DNA of 34,090 bases. It comes from a virus. Its lineage: Duplodnaviria; Caudoviricetes. Positions 13,753 to 34,090 of this stretch are shown in pieces. Under the pieces are notes generated by a model. The model was not told where the DNA came from. It did no database searches and worked only from the letters and a program-made list of their open reading frames with translations. Location: IMG/VR virus record IMGVR_UViG_3300012347_000486, positions 1 to 34,090 of that record, one strand, 5' to 3'. The position numbers were made by a program, and so were the translations under genes. How positions within the stretch are numbered: the first letter of the stretch is position 1; the number at the start of each line of letters is the position of its first letter.

Positions 13753-13837
13753 TTGACTTATAGTTGGCCTGGCTATATAATTAACACAAGCAAAGAGATA
13801 GACTCTGCGCTACCAATTATTCTAAGGAGCTTAGAAT
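13753..13837 (+). promoter_or_regulatory. promoter plus structured leader (GATAGAC hairpin, SD-occluding hairpin)
   Basis: TTGACT-17-TATAAT (13753-13781); AGA-GATAGAC-TCT; TTCTAAG-GAG-CTTAGAA covering the SD and start. Confidence 0.7.
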
Positions 13838-14855
13838 GTCAAAACCATATGGCACTCTCGTCCTCATCGGACGCTTTCAACCGTTTCACAATGCTCACCT
13901 TGAGATTATCAAGCGTGCTACTGCATTGACTGACAGCCTTGTTATCATAACAGGTTCAGCAAACCAACCACGTACATATAAGAATCCGTTCACATCAGCT
14001 GAGCGCGAACAGATGATCAAAGCCGCAACAGGCGGTCTGACTCTGAAGATTCATATCGAATCCAACCCCGACACAATCTACAACGATCAGGCATGGGCCG
14101 TTCGTATTCAATCGATTGTTAGTCGCTACCGTATCCTCGGTACACGCACCGCCATCATTGGCCACAAGAAAGATGACAGCTCATTCTACTTGGATATGTT
14201 CCCACAATGGGAGTATGTCGATGTGGAAGAGATCGAACCTCTGAGTGCAGTCAACATTCGTGACTTGTACTTCAAACGCGACGCCAACATGAACTTCATC
14301 AAGGCAGTCGTGCCACAAACTACATTCGTGTATTTGGATGCATTCAAAGATACACCAGAGTATGAGCAGATCATCAAGGAACGAGAGTTCGTTGAGAGCT
14401 ACAAGAAGCAGTATGCGTCTTTGCCATACCCACCGATCTTCTCTACAGCTGACACTGTAGTGATTCAATCTGGCCATGTGTTGCTGATCAAGCGACGTGC
14501 TGAGCCAGGCAAGGGTCTGTGGGCAATGCCAGGCGGATATGTCAACGCCAATACAGATAAGTCTGTAGAGGATGCTGCAATCCGTGAACTGCGCGAAGAG
14601 ACAATGATTAAAGTCCCAGCACCAGTTCTGCGTGGCAACATCGTTCGTAGCAAAGTGTTCGATGCAATTGATCGCAGTCCTCGTGGCCGCATCATCACGC
14701 ACGCATTCTTCATCCAATTGCCAGACGGTGAGTTGCCTAAAGTGAAAGGCTCTGATGATGCTGAGAAGGCACGTTGGGTTCCGATTGCTGACATTAAACC
14801 AGAAGAGTGTTTCGAAGATCACTACGAAATTCTCCAACACTTCTTGGGAGCTTGA
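13836..14855 (+). CDS. nadM: bifunctional NMN adenylyltransferase / ADP-ribose pyrophosphatase (NadM-Nudix)
   Basis: GRFQPFHNAH HxGH-type motif, KNPFT..ER, Nudix box PGGYV...AAIRELREET, GSDDA. Confidence 0.95.
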   Translation: MSKPYGTLVLIGRFQPFHNAHLEIIKRATALTDSLVIITGSANQPRTYKNPFTSAEREQMIKAATGGLTLKIHIESNPDTIYNDQAWAVRIQSIVSRYRILGTRTAIIGHKKDDSSFYLDMFPQWEYVDVEEIEPLSAVNIRDLYFKRDANMNFIKAVVPQTTFVYLDAFKDTPEYEQIIKEREFVESYKKQYASLPYPPIFSTADTVVIQSGHVLLIKRRAEPGKGLWAMPGGYVNANTDKSVEDAAIRELREETMIKVPAPVLRGNIVRSKVFDAIDRSPRGRIITHAFFIQLPDGELPKVKGSDDAEKARWVPIADIKPEECFEDHYEILQHFLGA

Positions 14856-16837: not shown

Positions 16838-16914
16838 GAGTTGGTCTAGAATATAATCATCCCAAGCCCTCTTGATAGACGAGAGGCATTTTAACTGTTA
16901 AGGAGTTTAACATG
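16829..16914 (+). promoter_or_regulatory. promoter plus structured leader (GATAGAC hairpin, SD-occluding hairpin)
   Basis: TTGCCA-17-TATAAT (16829-16857); CCTCTT-GATAGAC-GAGAGG; TGTTAAG-GAG-TTTAACA. Confidence 0.7.
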
Positions 16915-18312
16915 AAACTGAGTAAAAACATCTTATTGAATACTGATAGCTACAAAGCCAGTATGTTCAAGCAATATCCTGCTGGCACTTCGCATGTGTA
17001 CAGCTATATTGAATCCCGCGGCGGTCGTTATGACAAGACCGTTATGTTTGGCTTGCAAGCCTTCATCAAGGAATACTTACTTGACCCCATCACACAATCC
17101 GACATTGACATTGCCGACGAGATTCTCACCGCTCACGGAGAGCCATTCAATCGTGAAGGCTGGCAGTATATCCTCGACGTGCACAACGGATATCTTCCCA
17201 TCGTCATCCGAGCCGTTGCCGAGGGTACTGTGGTACCGGTGTCGAATGTCCTCGCAACCGTCGAGAACACAGACCCCGAATGTTTCTGGCTGACCACCTA
17301 CTTAGAGACTTCATTGCTTCGTGCTGTATGGTATGGCACGACTGTGGCAACACAGAGCTGGAGCATCAAGCGAGTTATTAAAGACTTTTTGGAGAAGACT
17401 GGTGATCCTGGACTTATTGATTTTAAGTTGCACGACTTTGGTGCTCGTGGCGTGTCTTCTATGGAGTCTGCGGGGATTGGGGGAGCCGCACACCTTGTTA
17501 ACTTCATGGGTACAGATACCATCACTGGTATTTTATATGCTCGTGAGTATTACAACGCTGGAGTTGCTGGTTTTAGTATTCCTGCAGCCGAACACAGTAC
17601 TATTACTTCTTGGGGCCGTGATAACGAAGTAAAAGCCTATGAAAACATGCTTAAACAGTTTGCTCGTCCTGGATCTATTGTTGCTGTTGTTAGCGACAGT
17701 TACGATGTTTTTAATGCCGCTTCAAAACTCTGGGGTGAAGAACTTCGCCAACAAGTTATTGACAGTGGTGCCACCATTGTTATTCGTCCAGATAGTGGCG
17801 ATCCTGTTGCTGTTAATCGTCAGCTGGTTGAAATTCTAGGAGAGAAGTTTGGATACACCACAAACGCAAAGGGCTTCAAAGTTCTTAACAATGTCCGACT
17901 TATCCAAGGGGATGGGGTCAATGAAATGTCCATCCGTTCTATCCTTGGTGCATTCATGGCGATGGGATGGTCAGCCGACAACATTGCCTTCGGTATGGGC
18001 GGTGCATTGTTACAACAAGTCGATCGAGACACCCAACGATTCGCAATGAAGTGTTCTGCGGCCTTTGTTATGGGATATGGTTGGGTCGATGTCCAAAAAG
18101 ATCCAGTGACAGATAGCGGCAAGAAGTCGAAGGCTGGTCGTGTGACTTTGTGGCAATCAGGTGGTGAGTTTGCATCTGGTATCAAGCCACCAGCTGGATG
18201 GACCGATAAAGGTTATGGTGGATGGGTCGAAGCCATGCAAACTGTATACCGTGATGGCAAGATCGTTCGTGAGTATGATTTTGCGGAAGTCCGAGCTAAC
18301 GCTAACGCCTAA
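16912..18312 (+). CDS. nadV: nicotinamide phosphoribosyltransferase (NAMPT)
   Basis: TDSYK, LHDFGARG, SIPAAEHS, VSDSYD, IRPDSGDP, IQGDG, FGMGG, KKSKAG. Confidence 0.96.
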   Translation: MKLSKNILLNTDSYKASMFKQYPAGTSHVYSYIESRGGRYDKTVMFGLQAFIKEYLLDPITQSDIDIADEILTAHGEPFNREGWQYILDVHNGYLPIVIRAVAEGTVVPVSNVLATVENTDPECFWLTTYLETSLLRAVWYGTTVATQSWSIKRVIKDFLEKTGDPGLIDFKLHDFGARGVSSMESAGIGGAAHLVNFMGTDTITGILYAREYYNAGVAGFSIPAAEHSTITSWGRDNEVKAYENMLKQFARPGSIVAVVSDSYDVFNAASKLWGEELRQQVIDSGATIVIRPDSGDPVAVNRQLVEILGEKFGYTTNAKGFKVLNNVRLIQGDGVNEMSIRSILGAFMAMGWSADNIAFGMGGALLQQVDRDTQRFAMKCSAAFVMGYGWVDVQKDPVTDSGKKSKAGRVTLWQSGGEFASGIKPPAGWTDKGYGGWVEAMQTVYRDGKIVREYDFAEVRANANA

Positions 18313-18387: not shown

Positions 18388-18840
18388 ATGTTTAAGTGGC
18401 CCTGGAAACGCGAACGTAAAATTGCATTCATTGATGGCGATCAACGCCTGCCTGGACTAATCAAGGCCTATCAAGAGCACGTAGTCGGCACAAACACCGA
18501 GACACACCTGATTCGTTTGATGTCCAAGTCTGATAGAAACAACGAACCTCACATTCTGCGTAAAATCGAGGGTATCAATAAGATTTACCTCGAAGGATTC
18601 ACTACAGGTAAAGAGGTGACCGATAAGTTCATCGGTGCGTATATCCAAAAAGCAATCAGCGATGGATATACTCATATCACGGTAATATCTGGTGACTATG
18701 ACTTCATTGATATCTTTAAGATGGCAGCGATCGTTGATAAGAAGGCATCCAAGTTGACATTTCGGATGATCGTACCTGACGCACAAGGTCGAATGAAAGA
18801 TCTTCCAGACCACATATTGAATATTGAAATTGTTAAGTGA
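18388..18840 (+). CDS. NYN/PIN-like ribonuclease domain protein
   Basis: AFIDGDQ, GKEVTD, ISGDYDF acidic motifs; AAGGA RBS before ATG 18388. Confidence 0.75.
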   Translation: MFKWPWKRERKIAFIDGDQRLPGLIKAYQEHVVGTNTETHLIRLMSKSDRNNEPHILRKIEGINKIYLEGFTTGKEVTDKFIGAYIQKAISDGYTHITVISGDYDFIDIFKMAAIVDKKASKLTFRMIVPDAQGRMKDLPDHILNIEIVK

Positions 18841-18847
18841 GAATGAA

Positions 18848-19858
18848 ATGAGAAAACTAGCTACTATTCGTAAGATCGATGAACTGAATCCAATCGAGGG
18901 CGCAGACGCTATTGAGTGTGCTGTTGTTGGGGGTTGGAAAGTTGTTGCACAGAAGGGCCTCTACCAAGTTGGTGACCTTGCTGTGTATTTCGAGATCGAC
19001 TCTTGGATTCCTACTGAGCTGGCTCCGTTCCTAAGCAAAGGTAAAGAGCCTCGTGAGTTTGAAGGTGTTAAGGGCGAACGCCTGAAGACTATCAAGCTTC
19101 GTGGTCAGTTGTCTCAGGGCCTGTTGATGCCACTGAAAGAAGTGTTTAATGTTGATGTCTTTGTTCCGGGCGAAGGCGAGGATGTCACCGAAGCCCTCGG
19201 CATCAAGAAGTGGGAAAAGCCGATCAACGCTCAACTCGCTGGTGTGTGTCGTGGCAACTTTCCGTCATTGATTCCTAAGACCGATCAAGAGCGTGTGCAA
19301 AACTTGAAGAAGGAAATTGCTGCTGCTCAGGGCATGATGTTTGAGGCTACCGAGAAATTGGAAGGCTCTTCCATGACGGTATACCAACTCAAAGGTGAGT
19401 TTGGTGTCTGTTCTCGCAATATGGACTTGAAGGAGTCTGAAGGCAATGCGTTTTGGGCTACTGCTCGCAAGGACGACATCGAAGCCAAGATGCGCGCTGT
19501 CGATGAGTTCTGGGATTTTGCTATCCAGGGCGAGTTGATTGGTCCTGGTATCCAAGGTAACATCTACAAACTATCACAACCCGAATTCCGCGTCTTTGAT
19601 GTGTATAATATTATGAAGGGCGAGTACCTGTTACCCGAGGCTCGTCGCGAGTTGGTTCATAAGATGGGACTGAAGCACGTGCCAGTAATTGCTCCATACT
19701 TCACGCTGAACGCTGATGTGGATCAGTTGCTTGCGATGGCAGAGTTTAAGTCCGAACTCGCTAGTGTAGAGCGTGAGGGTGTGGTGTTCAAGCAAAATGA
19801 TGGTGGTATGACTTTCAAAGCCATCTCCAACAAATACCTGTTGAAATCTGGAGATTGA
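18848..19858 (+). CDS. ATP-dependent RNA ligase, DRB0094/Rnl5 type with N-terminal OB fold
   Basis: MRKLATIRKI...IEGADAIE; motif I TEKLEGSS, QGELIG, FDV, EGVV, FKAISNKYL. Confidence 0.92.
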   Translation: MRKLATIRKIDELNPIEGADAIECAVVGGWKVVAQKGLYQVGDLAVYFEIDSWIPTELAPFLSKGKEPREFEGVKGERLKTIKLRGQLSQGLLMPLKEVFNVDVFVPGEGEDVTEALGIKKWEKPINAQLAGVCRGNFPSLIPKTDQERVQNLKKEIAAAQGMMFEATEKLEGSSMTVYQLKGEFGVCSRNMDLKESEGNAFWATARKDDIEAKMRAVDEFWDFAIQGELIGPGIQGNIYKLSQPEFRVFDVYNIMKGEYLLPEARRELVHKMGLKHVPVIAPYFTLNADVDQLLAMAEFKSELASVEREGVVFKQNDGGMTFKAISNKYLLKSGD

Positions 19859-23043: not shown

Positions 23044-23727
23044 ATGTCACATCCAGCACACAAATCGGATGCCAACTTAGGTATCCAAGTCCACGAGTAT
23101 TTGGTTAGCAAAGGACTCGAAACCCCAATCACCGCAAAGGTGCTTGAAGATAACGACAAGAAGATTGCCGCTATCCAAGGCCACTTTACCGAGATCATGG
23201 ATCTTCTCGGTCTAGACCTGCGCGACGACTCTTTAGTTGACACTCCAAAGCGTGTTGCTAAGATGTACGTCAATGAAATCTTCTGGGGATTGGATTACAC
23301 GAAGTTTCCGAAGTGCACTGCTATCGATAACAAGATGGCGTACAACGATTCTTTCGTTCTCGAGCGCAATATCAACGTCCAATCGAACTGCGAACATCAC
23401 TTTGTGGTAATTGACGGCGTTGCTACCGTTGCTTACATTCCACACAAGAAAGTACTCGGCCTGTCGAAGTTGAACCGTATTGTTGAGTTCTTCTCGAAGC
23501 GCCCACAAGTACAAGAGCGCTTGACTGAGCAGATCAAGGCCGCTATTGAATTTATCACCGAGTCGGAAGACGTGGCAGTCTATATTGACGCTGCTCACTA
23601 TTGCGTCAAGTCTCGTGGTATCCAAGACACCGGTTCGCGTACAGTAACTCTGGCATGTGGTGGTGTGTTTGCAGCTCAGAATTCTGAGATTCGCAAAGAG
23701 TTCTTGGCAATCGCTCGCCAGGCTTAA
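23044..23727 (+). CDS. folE: GTP cyclohydrolase I
   Basis: [44 protein letters not shown]. Confidence 0.97.
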
Positions 23728-28624: not shown

Positions 28625-29559
28625 GAGACGATTTCCTCTGGTGCGAGAAGTACCGCCCTAAAACAGTAGCAGATACGATTCTGCCTGCTGACATGAAGGC
28701 TACGTTCCAAAAGTATGTGGATGACAAGAACGTCCCTCACTTGCTCCTTAGTGGACGTGCCGGCGTTGGCAAGACCACAATTGCACGAGCAATGTTGGAA
28801 GAGCTTGGTTGCGATTACATCGTGATCAACGGCAGCTTGAACGGCAACATCGATACATTGCGTAACGACATCATGCAATTTGCATCAGCTGTGTCGTTGG
28901 ACGGTGGTCGCAAGTATGTCATCTTGGATGAGGCTGATTACCTCAACGCCAACTCAACACAGCCAGCTCTCCGTAACTTTATGGAAGAGTTCTCAAAGAA
29001 CTGTGGCTTCATCTTGACGTGTAACTTCAAGAACCGAATCATCGAGCCGTTGCACTCCCGTTGTAGTGTTATCGAATTCAAGATTCCGAATGCCGAGAAG
29101 CCAAAGCTAGCCGCGCAGTTCTTCCGTCGTATGACTGACGTCCTCACTCAAGAGAATGTGGAATTCGAACCAGCCGCTGTTGCTGCTGTGGTAGAAAAGC
29201 ACTTTCCTGACTTCCGTCGTACATTGAACGAACTGCAACGATACTCGTCATATGGCAAGATCGATACTGGCATCATCGTCGATGTCAGTGAAGTGAGTAT
29301 GAAAGAGCTGGTAGGACTGCTGAAACGGAAGGACTTCACGAGTGTTCGTAAGTGGGTAGCGGAGAACACCGATACCGATCCTATCGTGCTATTCCGCAAG
29401 TTCTACGACTTGGCTACGGACTACCTCAAGCCATCAGCTATCCCTCAGCTCGTACTGATCATTGCTGATTACCAATACAAGCAAGCATTCGTTGCTGACC
29501 AAGAAGTCAACACAGTGGCCTGTCTAACCGAAATTATGGTGGAGTGTGAATTCAAATGA
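28621..29559 (+). CDS. gp44: clamp loader ATPase subunit (T4 gp44-like)
   Basis: WCEKYRP, Walker A GRAGVGKTT, ILDEAD, LHSRC, PDFRR. Confidence 0.96.
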   Translation: MRDDFLWCEKYRPKTVADTILPADMKATFQKYVDDKNVPHLLLSGRAGVGKTTIARAMLEELGCDYIVINGSLNGNIDTLRNDIMQFASAVSLDGGRKYVILDEADYLNANSTQPALRNFMEEFSKNCGFILTCNFKNRIIEPLHSRCSVIEFKIPNAEKPKLAAQFFRRMTDVLTQENVEFEPAAVAAVVEKHFPDFRRTLNELQRYSSYGKIDTGIIVDVSEVSMKELVGLLKRKDFTSVRKWVAENTDTDPIVLFRKFYDLATDYLKPSAIPQLVLIIADYQYKQAFVADQEVNTVACLTEIMVECEFK

Positions 29560-29732
29560 ACATCTTTAGTAACAGATTCAACCCAGATCCAATCTGGCAC
29601 CGTAACATCAGCTTCGTGAAGAGCGCATTGCGCATCATCGCTGGTGGATGCATGATCGGTGGTAGCTTGATGTTAGGTGGCGTGTTCTTGATCCTCGCAG
29701 AAGTACTTGGCGTCGTTGAAGAGATCGTGTAA
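29556..29732 (+). CDS. small membrane protein (58 aa)
   Basis: ATGA/TAATG coupled at both ends; hydrophobic. Confidence 0.65.
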   Translation: MNIFSNRFNPDPIWHRNISFVKSALRIIAGGCMIGGSLMLGGVFLILAEVLGVVEEIV

Positions 29733-30022
29733 TGAACGATATACTTCTGAGCACAATAAGATGGATTGGCGATGACTACAGAACGCACCCTTTCCGGTTC
29801 GGAGTAGAGATCCTCGCTTGGGCGATCTCTATCGGATGCTCCATCACTATGGCTCTGACTGTACCTAACCCACCATTGCTGATGATGTATCCTGTGTGGA
29901 TTGCTGGTTGTGCGCTTTATGCGTGGGCTGCCTGGACTCGTAAGAGTTTTGGCATGCTCGCCAACTACTTCCTGCTGGTCACCATCGACGTAGTGGGTCT
30001 CATCAGGATGCTTACACAATGA
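29732..30022 (+). CDS. small 3-TM membrane protein
   Basis: three hydrophobic segments; coupled to neighbours. Confidence 0.75.
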   Translation: MNDILLSTIRWIGDDYRTHPFRFGVEILAWAISIGCSITMALTVPNPPLLMMYPVWIAGCALYAWAAWTRKSFGMLANYFLLVTIDVVGLIRMLTQ

Positions 30023-30423
30023 CGCCATTCGACTACGTAAACGCAATCAACCAAACGAAGAAAGATTTGATGGAAGATAAGGATGATGCTTCGGCGGAAT
30101 CCGGTTATGTTCCGTTCATCACAAACAAGACCTTATCGTACTTTCCTGAAACTGTAATGCATGCAAACCGCATGAATACACTTCACCATATCGACAAAAA
30201 GCTGCAATTCCATTACTTTCTAAATAGTGTTAGATCTGGAAAAAGGTTCGCGAAGTGGTTGAAGAAGGATAGTGACGATTTAGGGATTGTATGTGAATAC
30301 TATGGCTATAGCACGGAAAAAGCTAGAGCTGCTCTTCGTCTGCTGACTCCTCAACAAATTGCCCTTATAAAAATAAAACTAACACAAGGGGTTGGAGATG
30401 AATTTAGTAGAAAAGATGGTTGA
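30019..30423 (+). CDS. gp62: clamp loader small subunit (T4 gp62-like)
   Basis: PFDYVNAIN, YVPFITNKTLS, QFHYFLNSVR..KRFAKW, EYYGYS. Confidence 0.92.
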   Translation: MTPFDYVNAINQTKKDLMEDKDDASAESGYVPFITNKTLSYFPETVMHANRMNTLHHIDKKLQFHYFLNSVRSGKRFAKWLKKDSDDLGIVCEYYGYSTEKARAALRLLTPQQIALIKIKLTQGVGDEFSRKDG

Positions 30424-30793
30424 GGTCAAACTCAAAGATGACGACAGCTTTCTAAAAGTAAAAGAAACACTTACACGTATTGGCGTAGCATCACGTAAAG
30501 ATCAGAAGCTATACCAATCGTGCCACATCCTGCACAAGCAGGGAAAATATTACATAGTACACTTTAAAGAATTGTTTGCGCTGGACGGTAAGCCGTCAGA
30601 CTTTTCGGAAGATGATATTGCAAGACGTAACACAATCGCTAATCTATTGGCAGAGTGGGCGTTGATCGATCTAGTCGACCCGCAAAGGTCAGCAGCTCCT
30701 GTTGCACCAATCAGTCAAATTAAAGTGCTACCACACAAAGAGAAGAACCAATGGGAATTGGTTGCGAAATATAACATTGGAAGAAAGACCTAA
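30398..30793 (+). CDS. regA: translational repressor RegA
   Basis: FLKVKETLTRIG, LYQSCHILHKQGKYYIVHFKE. Confidence 0.96.
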   Translation: MNLVEKMVEVKLKDDDSFLKVKETLTRIGVASRKDQKLYQSCHILHKQGKYYIVHFKELFALDGKPSDFSEDDIARRNTIANLLAEWALIDLVDPQRSAAPVAPISQIKVLPHKEKNQWELVAKYNIGRKT

Positions 30794-30796
30794 ATT

Positions 30797-31420
30797 ATGA
30801 ATATTCAATTTGTTCACTTGCCCGGCGATAGCCTAGATTATGATGTTTTGCAGGAAGCAGCAGCTTCAATCAAGGGTGTCGAGGGAACAATTTGTGAAAT
30901 CGGCACACGTCGTGGCGGCAGCTTGCGATATATTGTCGATGGTGTGCTTGGCAATCAAGACCACAACCGCAACGTAGTTTGTATCGATCCGTATGGCAAC
31001 ATCGACTATGCAGACCGTGAGCATGTGATGATGAAGCACGACTACACAAACGATATGCGTAACGAAACGCTACCAAACATCTACATGTATTTGCAAGGTA
31101 AGCCAATCAACGTTGTGTTTATGTGCATGGAAGACACCGAATTCTTCAACCGATTTGCAGACGGCGTCCCGTTCTACCAAGAGCACAAGATCATGTCCAA
31201 TCAGTACAGCTTGGTGTTCTTTGATGGCCCGCACGATACCCCTTCACTATTGAAGGAATTGGAATTCTTCTACCCACGTACCCCACAGGGTGCATATTTC
31301 ATTTTTGACGACGTCGCAGCATATCCACACGACATCATCCACGAAGATCTGTTGAAGAACGGATTCGAGGCTGTTAAATATGGTGAGCAAGGACGTAAGA
31401 TTAGCTACGTTAAGAAGTAA
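30797..31420 (+). CDS. class I SAM-dependent methyltransferase (TylF/Methyltransf_24-like)
   Basis: CEIGTRRGGS, IDPY, FFDGPH, IFDD. Confidence 0.8.
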   Translation: MNIQFVHLPGDSLDYDVLQEAAASIKGVEGTICEIGTRRGGSLRYIVDGVLGNQDHNRNVVCIDPYGNIDYADREHVMMKHDYTNDMRNETLPNIYMYLQGKPINVVFMCMEDTEFFNRFADGVPFYQEHKIMSNQYSLVFFDGPHDTPSLLKELEFFYPRTPQGAYFIFDDVAAYPHDIIHEDLLKNGFEAVKYGEQGRKISYVKK

Positions 31421-31425
31421 CCAGG

Positions 31426-31454
31426 TTGCCTCGCTAGTTTGGTCAACGTATAAT
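31426..31454 (+). promoter_or_regulatory. sigma70-type promoter
   Basis: TTGCCT-17-TATAAT. Confidence 0.65.
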
Positions 31455-31474
31455 TGACTGAAAGCGAGGTAACT

Positions 31475-31771
31475 ATGATTAGCATCGAAGATTCAACTTC
31501 TAAACCGGTTATTACGATTGAAGCAACGCTTCCGTCACAACCGGTCCGTGTCGAGGGATATTCCACTACCGCAGTTACAGTTCGTCATCCTAGCGTATAC
31601 GACATCGAACCTAATTGGGACAATGTCGCAAATGCAGGCTGGATAATATTGATTGCAGTATTGTTGATTCCTCGAGTATTCAACTTGGGCTCAGCCATCG
31701 GCTTTATAATTGGTGGCTTCGCATTTGCGGCTTCAGTTATAGCCAGTTGGTTTTTAATACTTACTGCATGA
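31475..31771 (+). CDS. hypothetical membrane protein
   Basis: GAGGT RBS; two C-terminal TM segments. Confidence 0.7.
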   Translation: MISIEDSTSKPVITIEATLPSQPVRVEGYSTTAVTVRHPSVYDIEPNWDNVANAGWIILIAVLLIPRVFNLGSAIGFIIGGFAFAASVIASWFLILTA

Positions 31772-32064
31772 CAGACATATCAATCATCGACCTCCTACTA
31801 TACGCGTGCGCTGCTACTATTGTTTATCGATTCATTGTCGACAGATTCACATCGGATGATGACCAGTATCCAATTGAAGTTGTCTTCCCAGTCAAACTCG
31901 AGTATACTGACACTCAATGGTACGGATGGGACAATGATGGAGAATTTCTCGGTCAGGCCCCAACAAAGACGATGCTAATGGATGCGATATCAAAAGATGT
32001 CGATCTTCCACTAGACAAATTTCAGATCCTATCAGAGTCGGTTCTTGTAAACCAAATAAAATAA
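31768..32064 (+). CDS. hypothetical protein with N-terminal TM
   Basis: ATGA coupling at 31768. Confidence 0.7.
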   Translation: MTDISIIDLLLYACAATIVYRFIVDRFTSDDDQYPIEVVFPVKLEYTDTQWYGWDNDGEFLGQAPTKTMLMDAISKDVDLPLDKFQILSESVLVNQIK

Positions 32065-32090
32065 ATTTCAATTATTTTAGGTGACCACAG

Positions 32091-32119
32091 TTGTCAAAAC
32101 AAAAAGTCGTCTATATAAT
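32091..32119 (+). promoter_or_regulatory. sigma70 promoter P1 of the tRNA-cluster leader
   Basis: TTGTCA-17-TATAAT. Confidence 0.8.
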
Positions 32120-32161
32120 ACACAAATCAATTAAAAACTTTCCTTTCGGAGTATTTCAGAA

Positions 32162-32293
32162 GTGTCCTCAATAATCATTACAACAGTAAAACACGAGCAA
32201 CCGAGCTATCTCAGCTTGGCCGCACGCTCATGCTTTATTGGTAATGGACGCGATTGGTCTACCCCAGGGTCTGAAGGATCCGGTTACGCATAA
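32162..32293 (+). CDS. putative attenuator leader peptide (43 aa) containing all 20 amino acids
   Basis: GGAG at 32148-32151, GTG start, MSSIIITTVKHEQPSYLSLAARSCFIGNGRDWSTPGSEGSGYA*; overlaps the antiterminator strand. Confidence 0.65.
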   Translation: MSSIIITTVKHEQPSYLSLAARSCFIGNGRDWSTPGSEGSGYA

Positions 32294-32314
32294 ACAGTAA
32301 CTACACTCTTCAAG

Positions 32315-32349
32315 AAACCCTGGGATCTCAAAAGGACCCAGGGTTTTTT
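32315..32349 (+). terminator. intrinsic terminator (attenuator) with a competing antiterminator
   Basis: AAACCCTGGG/CCCAGGGTTT stem plus T-run; a second CCCAGGGT at 32263-32270 can pair with the 5' arm. Confidence 0.85.
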
Positions 32350-32409
32350 ATTGCGCGAGTCTATTTCAGTTTGCAATAATGTAAATTAAAATTGATTCTG
32401 ACCAGCCAG

Positions 32410-32438
32410 TTGATGTTAAGATTAGTTCCTAATACAAT
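32410..32438 (+). promoter_or_regulatory. second sigma70-type promoter P2 before the tRNA cluster
   Basis: TTGATG-17-TACAAT. Confidence 0.55.
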
Positions 32439-32468
32439 CGGCAACAGAACAAAACGATTATCTAATCG

Positions 32469-32503
32469 GATCAAATTTAGGTTTGATCATATGCTCATTA
32501 ACA
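32469..32503 (+). promoter_or_regulatory. rrn-like boxB/boxA antitermination signal
   Basis: hairpin GATCAAAT-TTAG-GTTTGATC followed by TGCTCATTAACA (one mismatch to TGCTCTTTAACA). Confidence 0.6.
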
Positions 32504-32544
32504 TTTAAATGACTTTGGGTGGCCGCTTCGGCGGCCACAATTAT

Positions 32545-32619
32545 ACTGCGTTCGTCTATCGGTTAGGACATCAGGTTTTCAACCTGAGAAGAGGGGTTCG
32601 ACTCCCCTACGCAGTACCA
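32545..32619 (+). tRNA. tRNA-Glu(TTC)
   Basis: ACTGCGT/ACGCAGT acceptor, TCAGG-TT-TTC-AA-CCTGA, GGTTCGA T-loop, CCA. Confidence 0.95.
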
Positions 32620-32740
32620 TTAATTGAATCTTCTGTAAGCTCAGAGGATCGATCATTCGTTATGTAACTGCGTCAATACGCCGTAAGCCTGCAGTAAAGC
32701 GTGCTGAGATGTAGCAAATAGTGCAGTGGATTCAATTAAT
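32620..32740 (+). ncRNA. unassigned structured RNA between tRNA-Glu and tRNA-Asp
   Basis: ends form a perfect 14-bp inverted repeat CCATTAATTGAATC/GATTCAATTAATGG (32617-32630/32729-32742). Confidence 0.5.
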
Positions 32741-32815
32741 GGCTCTGTCATATAGTGGTTATTATACCGGCCTGTCTAGCTGGATATCGGGGTTCGATTC
32801 CCCGCAGAGTCGCCA
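32741..32815 (+). tRNA. tRNA-Asp(GTC)
   Basis: CCGGC-CT-GTC-TA-GCTGG anticodon arm, T-loop, GCCA end. Confidence 0.92.
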
Positions 32816-32821
32816 AGTTTT

Positions 32822-32895
32822 ACCCGGATAGTTAAATGGTATAACGTGCGCTTGATAAGCGCTTATCGCAAGTTCGATTCTTGCTCTGGGTACCA
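32822..32895 (+). tRNA. tRNA-Ile(GAT)
   Basis: ACCCGGA/TCTGGGT acceptor, GCGC-TT-GAT-AA-GCGC, ACCA. Confidence 0.92.
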
Positions 32896-32903
32896 AGTTT
32901 TTT

Positions 32904-32979
32904 GCTCGCGAAGTATTAGTTGGTGGTATGCCGCTTTCGTAATGCGGAGGATCGGGTTCGAGGCCTGACGTGAGCACCA
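32904..32979 (+). tRNA. tRNA-Thr(CGT)
   Basis: GCTCGCG/CGTGAGC acceptor, loop TT-CGT-AA, ACCA; some non-canonical pairs. Confidence 0.85.
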
Positions 32980-32990
32980 AGAGTTTTTAT

Positions 32991-33066
32991 CTCCGTATGG
33001 CGTAACCTGGTAGCGTCCATGCTTTGGGAGCATGTGGTGAAGGTTCAAATCCTTCTATGGAGACCA
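32991..33066 (+). tRNA. tRNA-Pro(TGG)
   Basis: CATGC-TT-TGG-GA-GCATG, GGTTCAAATCC, ACCA. Confidence 0.95.
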
Positions 33067-33071
33067 TAGTT

Positions 33072-33270
33072 TTTGTAAGTGTTAGCAAGAGAAAGACACA
33101 CCTCTAAGGATTCTTCGAAGGTCCATTGGTGTAAAGTGGGGACGGTTCGAATCCGGTATCGACGGCCTAACGGAGGCACCTATGTCAAGTATTCCAAGTA
33201 ACGTACCGACCTCCCTGTGCACATAACCGATGGGTGAATGGTTCCGATAACGTGGCGGAACGCTTGCGAA
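33072..33270 (+). ncRNA. unassigned ~200-nt multi-hairpin RNA with a T-loop hairpin
   Basis: 12-bp closing stem TTTGTAAGTGTT/AACGCTTGCGAA (3 G-U pairs); internal CGG-TTCGAAT-CCG and other hairpins. Confidence 0.55.
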
Positions 33271-33278
33271 TTTATTTT

Positions 33279-33352
33279 CTGGGTATAAGATAGTGGCAGT
33301 CTCCGAGTCTTGGATACTTGATGTGGAAGTTCGATTCTTCCTACCCAGACCA
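33279..33352 (+). tRNA. tRNA-Pro(TGG), second divergent copy
   Basis: CTGGGTA/TACCCAG acceptor, CGAGT-CT-TGG-AT-ACTTG, ACCA. Confidence 0.88.
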
Positions 33353-33358
33353 CTTTTT

Positions 33359-33429
33359 AGGATGAGTTCTGCAACAACAATAGAACACCAAACTTTTAAT
33401 TTGACATGTTCGTCAAAATCATCCTGTTA
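33359..33429 (+). ncRNA. CWGCAA-stem RNA 1: displays a tRNA-Lys(UUU) anticodon stem-loop
   Basis: AGGATGA/TCATCCT closing stem; CTGCAA; GAACA-C-CAAA-CTTTTAA-TTTG-ACA-TGTTC. Confidence 0.65.
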
Positions 33430-33435
33430 TATTAG

Positions 33436-33566
33436 TCGGCGTAATTAACCGAGACAGTAAGTAGTAGATGACCTCGCCACCACGGTCGTCTTTGCAGTGT
33501 ATACTGCGTCAGGAAGCTCGAAAGGGTAACTTGAGAAACACTGGGGTAAGAATCCCAATTGTTGGT
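33436..33566 (+). ncRNA. unassigned structured RNA
   Basis: consecutive hairpins AGATGACC/GGTCGTCT, GCAGT/ACTGC, GCTC-GAAA-GGGT, TGGG/CCCA. Confidence 0.4.
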
Positions 33567-33578
33567 GTGCAGAATTAT

Positions 33579-33657
33579 TCCGGAAAACCCGAGCAAGGTG
33601 CATGGGCTTGACTGTTAATCAATGGTTAGGTGGGTTCGATTCCCACATCCGGAGCCA
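33579..33657 (+). tRNA. tRNA-Asn(GTT)
   Basis: TTGA-CT-GTT-AA-TCAA, GTGGG-TTCGATT-CCCAC, GCCA. Confidence 0.9.
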
Positions 33658-33662
33658 GTTAG

Positions 33663-33781
33663 AGGATACTTGCAGCAATGTCTAACGACACGTTGGTTCG
33701 AATCCAACTCCACGCGATTCGCGTAGATCGCTCAGCGGTTGAGCAAAAGCTTCAAAAGCTTTCGAAAAAGGTATCCTGTTA
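33663..33781 (+). ncRNA. CWGCAA-stem RNA 2: circularly permuted tRNA-Leu(CAA)-like cloverleaf
   Basis: AGGATACT/GGTATCCT stem; order is variable arm, T arm, loop-closed acceptor, D arm, anticodon arm AAAGC-TT-CAA-AA-GCTTT. Confidence 0.75.
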
Positions 33782-33794
33782 TATTTGACCATCT

Positions 33795-33917
33795 AGGTTT
33801 GTTTCAGCAATTTTAAATAATCTTTCTATGAAAAAGAAGTTCTGGGTTCGAATCCCAGCGTTAGAGTTGGTCTTCTAATGTGGTGTAATGGTAACACGTA
33901 AAAAAGCAAACCTGTTA
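33795..33917 (+). ncRNA. CWGCAA-stem RNA 3: circularly permuted tRNA-like cloverleaf with an ATG anticodon
   Basis: AGGTTTGT/GCAAACCT stem; order is anticodon arm TCTTT-CT-ATG-AA-AAAGA, T arm, loop-closed acceptor, D arm. Confidence 0.75.
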
Positions 33918-33924
33918 ATTTTGT

Positions 33925-33999
33925 TGGCGTGTGGTGTAATTGGTAACACAACAGACTTTGACTCTGTCGTCTCAGGTTCGATCCCTGACACGCCTGCCA
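33925..33999 (+). tRNA. tRNA-Gln(TTG)
   Basis: ACAGA-CT-TTG-AC-TCTGT, TCAGG-TTCGATC-CCTGA, GCCA. Confidence 0.95.
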
Positions 34000-34011
34000 G
34001 AATACTTAGGT

Positions 34012-34082
34012 GTGACTATGATGTAGCGGTAGCATCTCAGATTGTGATTCTGATCGTACGGGTTCAACTCCCGTTAGTCACC
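34012..34082 (+). tRNA. tRNA-His(GTG), no encoded G-1 or CCA
   Basis: GTGACTA/TAGTCAC acceptor, TCAGA-TT-GTG-AT-TCTGA, C73 discriminator. Confidence 0.9.
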
Positions 34083-34090
34083 CCTAAGTA

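Follow-up and report, generated by a model that had tools for sequence, protein, structure and literature searches.

The window, by which we mean the whole stretch of DNA analysed here (34,090 bases), is a virus record that is ∼16% complete. It encodes sliding clamp, clamp loader and RegA-type repressor genes of a T4-like phage, and the best match of the clamp loader among 2,602 records is that of Stenotrophomonas phage DLP_6 (65% identity). Between 0.32 and 0.64 of the words of the region occur in 14 DNA runs (11 freshwater, two wastewater and one aquatic metagenomes), and six RNA runs contain merely 0.07–0.19 of them; the near-strain comparison of the leader region draws on four runs, all of them DNA contigs. 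The window also encodes, at 13836–14855, 16912–18312, 18824–19858 and 23044–23727, an NAD salvage pair (cytidyltransferase/NUDIX-type and nicotinamide phosphoribosyltransferase), an RNA ligase and a GTP cyclohydrolase, which are candidates for counter-defence or RNA repair. Toward its end lies a tRNA array preceded by a short leader unit with the following features.

32091..32119, + strand: P1, sigma-70-like promoter, TTGTCA-17-TATAAT, 11/12
32148..32151, + strand: Shine–Dalgarno-like GGAG, 10 nt upstream of the GTG
32162..32293, + strand: leader ORF of 43 codons with a GTG start and all 19 non-Met amino acids
32183..32257, + strand: codons 8–32, the shortest stretch with all 19 amino acids (25 codons), ending at Trp32
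32185..32239, + strand: predicted stem-loop within the leader ORF (inner hairpin 32201–32219)
32263..32324, + strand: predicted antiterminator, 32263–32277 pairing with 32308–32324; the arms covary in homologs
32314..32349, + strand: intrinsic terminator (5' arm 32317–32324, 3' arm 32337–32343, U-tract 32344–32349)
32410..32438, + strand: P2, promoter-like site behind the terminator, 9/12, which would bypass the attenuator
32545..34084, + strand: first part of the tRNA/ncRNA array (Glu, Asp, Ile, Thr, Pro, Pro, Asn, Gln, His), cut off by the contig end

The positions of P1, the GGAG and its spacing, the ORF, the repeated arm, the terminator and P2 are all as given in a preliminary description of the locus. 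P1 is the top-scoring of 11 promoter sites in 29000–34090, from which we infer a transcription start close to 32126. Trp, the 19th and last non-Met residue to appear, is codon 32 (at 32255), and a recount of the first 32 codons again gives 27 different codons (26 excluding the start). Codons 8–32 are predicted to be the sensing window of the leader; most amino acids occur there in a single copy, and a tandem run of control codons for one amino acid is absent. The stem-loop at 32185..32239 is, on the basis of the fold, a possible pause hairpin. The arm copy behind Trp32 is exact: across the whole window CCCAGGGT is found solely at 32263 and, as the 3' arm of the terminator, at 32337, and its partner ACCCTGGG is found solely at 32317. 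Both proposed conformers were folded, with predicted energies of −21.9 kcal/mol for the terminator and −26.2 kcal/mol for the exclusive antiterminator fold, whose inner hairpin (32282–32302) carries the leader stop codon in its loop. A terminator scan with a loop limit of 8 misses 32314–32349, which has a longer loop; folding and a second finder detect it.

The chance of the full amino-acid set in the leader is 0.05–0.2%. All 19 residues are contained in 11 of 5,266 31-codon windows from 29 genes of the window (0.2%), in 0.05% of independent-residue draws of 31 codons and in 0.05–0.1% of stop-free random DNA of that length. A complete 25-codon stretch occurs in two of 5,440 gene windows and in 13 per million independent draws.

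In near strains (runs X1, X4 and X11), the substitution 32414 T>C brings the −35 element of P2 nearer to the consensus. A perfect 8-pair G+C hairpin with a UUCG loop (32519–32538, −16.9) lies directly before tRNA-Glu and is possibly a 5' protection or processing signal of P2 transcripts. Three RNAs between the tRNA genes (33359–33429, 33663–33781 and 33795–33917) have a common closing-stem motif, which occurs 16 times in 62 strands with at least 10 tRNAs and once in 326 tRNA-free strands; the middle one has a weak Rfam match to YrlA (Y RNA-like; 21 bits versus a gathering score of 69, E = 0.21), and the three are possibly divergent Y RNAs. Two further inter-tRNA segments (32620–32740 and 33072–33272) have long closing stems (−31.8 and −53.0 kcal/mol) and no Rfam match; the second includes a stretch resembling a T-arm and could be a tRNA with an intron, a degenerate tRNA or an RNA of another kind. 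Elsewhere, tRNA genes with a CUA anticodon ('Pyl' in ARAGORN, amber suppressors) are present in G001 (L113) and DLP_6 (L241), and XacN1 (L244) has two annotated tRNA-Sup.

Conservation of the leader in related phages

A search with RegA returned 80 loci, 12 of them with tRNAs and two with a leader (L040 and L056). L040 lies in the complete 234.9-kb genome G002 and has the same leader ahead of an array that begins Glu-Asp-Ile, as in the window phage. Further members came from pattern and profile searches, and nine were compared, identical or near-identical copies being excluded. A terminator-pattern scan returned 13 loci, of which the three with tRNAs (two distinct) have 18/19 and 19/19 leaders and the other ten have none; a search with a methyltransferase-like neighbour gene returned three loci, none with tRNAs. 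The leader gave a single weak tblastn match (E = 5) among cultured phages, and in a blastn search with the leader plus tRNA-Glu the best 40 of 271 matching records match the tRNA part alone. GTDB genomes yielded a lone 10-residue match without a start, terminator check or tRNA, which we regard as chance.

The start codon keeps its position and frame in all nine members (ATG in seven, GTG in two), and a TTG..-17-TATA[AC]T promoter site stands at the same place in seven aligned homologs. GGAG recurs as the Shine–Dalgarno region in L099, the others having A-rich AAAG/GAAAG. Residues that are present once in codons 2–28 are invariant at nine of ten positions, compared with eight of 17 fixed redundant positions (Fisher p = 0.04), and the Lys, His, Gln and Pro codons among these single-copy residues vary synonymously across the family. 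The Trp/Asp/Arg end is reordered in four members, all four of which are still complete; one of them, in which Val6 and Leu19 are lost, has Leu6 and Val20. Two members, L099 and L108, have no internal Val codon; the array behind L099 (genome G001) has two tRNA-Val genes among 36 tRNAs despite this. Codons 10–28 are conserved across the family, and codons 21–26 and 28 show no change at all, synonymous sites included, for which RNA structure could be an alternative explanation.

The pairing arms change together. The terminator 5' arm, 3' arm and antiterminator arm read CCCTGGG, CCCAGGG and CCCAGGG in the window phage, CCCCAGG, CCTGGGG and CCGGGG in L040, and CCCCGG, CCGGGG and CCGGGG in L099; this covariation was taken from per-sequence folds because the MAFFT alignment is one column off at the terminator 5' arm. 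Among the changes listed for near strain X4, seven fall in 32137–32159, two change codon 9 from Val to Thr, and three lie in the terminator loop, with none in the stem arms. The arrays of G001 and G002 (36 and 40 tRNA genes) cover all 20 amino acids and have one strong terminator in front and none comparable inside; in G002 a complete leader precedes a complete array.

Leaders ahead of other tRNA arrays

For a survey blind to leader content, loci were chosen by a 20-base tRNA-Glu pattern, giving 120 viral loci of ∼670 (80 with flanks) and 50 distinct arrays with at least five tRNAs and 1,300 bases upstream. The best upstream ORF of 25–50 codons holds 19/19 amino acids in 15 of the 50 arrays, and in 12 of the 24 with at least 15 tRNAs, compared with 0/50 on the opposite strand and 0/44 farther upstream; in 13 of these 15 arrays a terminator lies 20–33 nt behind the stop. 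The other 35 arrays have no complete upstream ORF.

Sixty-two terminators were found upstream of tRNAs, of which nine end long genes, 14 have no ORF and 39 have a short ORF, chosen by length under a rule blind to content. At least 18 amino acids are held by 23 of the 39 ORFs (2.6 expected for ORFs of their length and base composition) and all 19 by 15 (0.43 expected). Among 82 control terminators, which come from a stricter finder than the relaxed one used for the leaders, 19 have short ORFs, two with at least 18 amino acids (1.5 expected) and one with 19, the latter being the family member L112. The 39 ORFs form 34 clusters, some of them apparently distantly related, so that the independent cases are fewer. 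The family member L120 is absent from the blind set since the content-blind rule took the wrong frame (14/19; the family frame has 19/19). Missing amino acids do not correlate with absent tRNA types (p = 0.12, for arrays ending inside their locus), and in L129 a 19/19 leader stands ahead of merely six tRNAs.

These data bear on two readings in which the attenuator has no part. According to the first, the element is a structured non-coding RNA whose ORF and full amino-acid set arose by chance. The low folding energy of the leader RNA (z = −4.3 versus shuffles) and the near-invariant DNA of codons 21–28 would fit such an RNA. On the other hand, GTG and ATG replace each other in place, single-copy residues change synonymously only, and the enrichment is confined to frame +0 (23/39 with at least 18 amino acids, compared with 1–6 of 39 in the other five frames, which also have 0–1 complete stretches each), so we give this reading hardly any weight. 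According to the second, the function resides in the leader peptide, which would be an arrest peptide or a small protein of incidental composition. The conservation of codons 10–28 would suit an acting peptide, but the order of residues is shuffled within the family, the 34 clusters of the blind set have diversity and geometry in common and not sequence, and the peptide has no PHROGs match and one 38-residue homolog in the protein collection; this reading, too, appears extremely improbable.

Ten cultured-phage regions were examined and two contain leaders. DLP_6, the closest cultured relative, is among the eight without one, together with RsoM2USA, XacN1, ACP17, DC31, immuto_2-6A, Ccr10 and phiPsa374 (regions, some of which may miss the array start). 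Inspection by eye places a two-piece tmRNA-like element with a tag-like frame before the DLP_6 array in place of the leader (L241:1334–1560). In Vibrio phage phi-ST2 a leader of 37 codons with 17/19 amino acids, followed by a terminator, precedes a dense tRNA block. The leader region of phi-ST2 matches 50 Vibrio phage records, and all five that were fetched (KVP40, D482, 1.081.O, nt-1 and F86) have a leader of 37–38 codons with 18/19 amino acids despite substitutions. The Vibrio phage case is weaker, since the antiterminator begins at the stop codon and that of phi-ST2 is not above shuffles (22/100 reach it). Cellulophaga phage phi4:1 has three leader–terminator units that end 10–11 nt before tRNA blocks, and 11/14, 15/16 and 12/16 codons of the leaders match their own block, compared with 0–4 for the other blocks; the coordinates of these units were picked after the region had been viewed, and the antiterminator of the second unit is not above shuffles.

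A few arrays show other arrangements. Six of the 33 leaders described below (L056:2428–2587, L132, L144, L180, L194 and L198) have, at most 70 nt upstream, an octamer that we take by its consensus to resemble the T4 late promoter, so some switches may act late in infection. Near-complete leaders in L009/L012 and L011 have a terminator 400–770 nt ahead of the first tRNA found; in L009/L012 a reading frame begins directly behind it, and the controlled gene may encode a protein. In L143, L148, L150 and L156 a Trp-rich ORF of 22–26 codons, which is not amino-acid-complete and recurs in several related phages, precedes the first tRNA with a terminator of its own.

Predicted folds and the position of the switch

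Folding was examined in 33 leaders with at least 18 amino acids, 23 from the blind set and ten from earlier searches; 29 start with ATG and 25 have a promoter-like site within 110 nt upstream of the start. The terminator 5' arm is predicted to be sequestered before the 3' arm is made in 33/33 (mean P of 0.90 versus 0.56 in shuffles), and in 1/33 once the sequence up to 12 nt past the stop is removed. All 23 blind leaders have a predicted antiterminator: in a fixed 75-nt window P exceeds 0.75 in 23/23, compared with 20/81 control terminators (p = 3e-10). In 22/33 leaders the residue that completes the amino-acid set lies 6 nt or more ahead of the antiterminator arm (2,000 shuffled orders: mean 6.2, maximum 13). 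First occurrences of residues are concentrated in codons −9 to −3 (129/231; null mean 86, maximum 109) and drop from 16/33 at codon −3 to 2/33 at codon −2, a drop to which the codons of the G-rich arm itself, being restricted, may contribute. The number of distinct residues in the last 12 codons is marginal only (10.1 versus a null of 9.7, maximum 10.2).

With a modelled ribosome assumed to cover 8 nt past the A-site codon, sequestration in the window leader is 1.0 up to codon 31, 0.59 at Trp32, 0.14 at codon 33 and at most 0.24 thereafter, and L040, L099 and L109 switch at their completing codon as well. Without a ribosome and before the 3' arm is made, the modelled antiterminator has P = 1.0; no protector helix, which would make termination the default without translation, is predicted in the window leader. 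Full-leader equilibrium folding does not distinguish ribosome positions: the finished terminator wins with or without a ribosome (0.93–1.0 without), so that any switching must be kinetic. In a model that permits pairing across the ribosome, the arm of the window leader re-pairs with a ribosome on the stop codon (P = 1.0) because the tail after the completing codon is 11 codons here versus six in L040; such a re-formed antiterminator would, according to the model, raise basal read-through. Homologs, the blind survey with its controls and the folding models accordingly back three points of the earlier interpretation: the attenuator anatomy, the selection for amino-acid breadth and the position of the last new residue immediately 5' of the antiterminator.

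The proposal that the unit gates the array went too far. A promoter-like site lies between the terminator and the first tRNA in 20 of the 33 leaders (5.2 expected), and all eight family members listed have one to three such sites, so that in this family the unit is more likely to be a booster than the sole gate. The same sites would accommodate a stand-alone, always-terminated leader RNA made from P1, with the array transcribed from P2 and a switch that has no effect on tRNA or merely occludes P2, as would the dominance of the terminator at equilibrium. Yet 13/33 leaders have no downstream promoter-like site, the phi4:1 terminators end 10–11 nt before a tRNA, and the antiterminator arms covary and exceed controls. 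We consider such a stand-alone RNA very unlikely and retain the attenuator.

Proposed mechanism and relation to known attenuators

The unit is probably a ribosome-coupled attenuator that senses slow decoding of any amino acid and has most likely been selected by loss of host tRNA, as sequence comparison and folding models suggest. A ribosome moving at normal speed along the leader would block the predicted antiterminator, and transcription would stop at 32344–32349; if the ribosome were slowed at Trp32 or earlier, the antiterminator would stay free, and transcription would continue into the tRNA array, read-through from P1 likely adding to a basal supply from P2. Folding predicts two exclusive folds with the switch point at codons 31–33, and antitermination as the default without a ribosome, so blocked initiation would also yield read-through. 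The leader ORF is presumed to be translated and coupled to the host RNA polymerase, and the choice between terminator and antiterminator to be kinetic. The natural trigger would be the loss of host tRNA or damage to it, because a plain shortage of amino acids could not be remedied by additional tRNA genes. Because the same design recurs in many phages, it likely raises phage tRNA production when ribosomes slow for lack of tRNA. The earlier idea of a response to any host tRNA is overstated, in that only 26 of the 61 sense codons occur in the sensing stretch, which thus samples amino acids and not every isoacceptor, and in that two members have no internal Val.

The attenuator might instead gauge host nutrition or overall translation rate (starvation, antibiotics or late shut-off), tRNA output being a response of timing or growth state. 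Coverage of amino acids and not of all anticodons would fit this, as would the predicted default without a ribosome, by which any translation block would open the attenuator; the E. coli toiL uORF responds to five antibiotic classes (PMC12121999). Against it, the codons of each phi4:1 leader correspond to the tRNA block immediately downstream, an indication that tRNA supply is what the leader senses, and more tRNA would presumably not relieve a lack of amino acids. We judge this reading unlikely and prefer tRNA loss as the selecting condition.

The leader appears to work like a trp/his-type attenuator that is devoid of two defining features, tandem control codons and a protector helix. A promoter and a short ORF with a start and a ribosome-binding site (pattern evidence) are found, as are a terminator before the regulated genes and a predicted antiterminator that is exclusive with it and overlapped by a translating ribosome. 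The trp, ilvGMEDA and thr leaders are transcription attenuators of amino-acid operons, those of ilvGMEDA and thr being multivalent. Such leaders likewise have a promoter, a short ORF, an antiterminator overlapping the ORF end and an intrinsic terminator, and stalling opens the operon; they have tandem runs for one to three amino acids, whereas the phage leader has one codon each for up to 19, and its target is the phage tRNA genes, often with a bypass promoter. The E. coli pheST attenuator, with leader pheM, senses charged tRNA(Phe) and controls a synthetase. It resembles the proposed phage unit in that its leader peptide responds to charged tRNA and governs a component of the translation machinery, but pheST senses Phe only, and the phage leader would control tRNA genes in place of a synthetase. 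T-box riboswitches also tie a terminator/antiterminator switch to tRNA charging, but bind tRNA directly and need no ribosome. A T-box, with its specifier stem and antiterminator bulge, was considered for the leader and rejected: the leader has no Rfam match at the gathering score or at E up to 5.

In the Salmonella his leader, swapped-in codons and stops de-attenuate through stalling, engineered stalls at any of seven positions lower attenuation, central ones most, and the untranslated leader terminates (PMC4046918). Early codons of the phage leader may by this position effect count less, and the phage leader, with no predicted protector helix, differs from his in its predicted read-through without translation. 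A functional analogue is the Anabaena trn operon, a 26-gene tRNA array that is silent until translational stress, with the repressor TrcR at its promoter; control there is by a protein, the abstract mentioning no leader peptide, whereas the phage unit would use one (PMC10272220). Like the proposed phage leader, the toiL uORF of topAI-yjhQ serves several purposes and registers stalls at various codons; it differs in its translational control, Rho-dependent termination, toxin–antitoxin target and antibiotic sensing (PMC12121999).

The purpose of phage tRNA arrays is a 50-year-old question. Phage tRNAs have reportedly been studied as acting against PARIS and retrons. One current answer is that arrays offset host tRNA depletion and anticodon nucleases, and the words 'attenuat' and 'leader' are absent from the paper that gives it (PMC10264068). 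Attenuation of phage tRNA genes or an all-amino-acid leader did not come up in the literature searched, which contains few subscription papers, as judged by titles and abstract openings. A wider proposition, which we hold to be about evenly balanced, is that large phages have repeatedly evolved a test message with one codon per amino acid, which would keep watch on the entire decoding machinery of the host and by attenuation switch on a full set of replacement tRNAs when any tRNA class is cleaved or depleted. This would be an inducible, protein-free counter-defence against tRNA-targeting immunity, and block-specific where arrays are split.

KVP40-like Vibrio phages and Cellulophaga phi4:1 are cultured cases in which the design is testable. 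The leader is unannotated both in KVP40 and in the related phage nt-1, for which Vibrio natriegens serves as host. If the proposal is true, the leader unit would be a compact reporter of translation stress, and attenuation, so far a matter of single amino acids and of enzymes, would be extended to the whole amino-acid set and to tRNA genes. A tRNA switch that acts on slowed decoding would then be direct evidence that phage arrays respond to tRNA loss, and the codons of the leader would name the tRNAs at stake.
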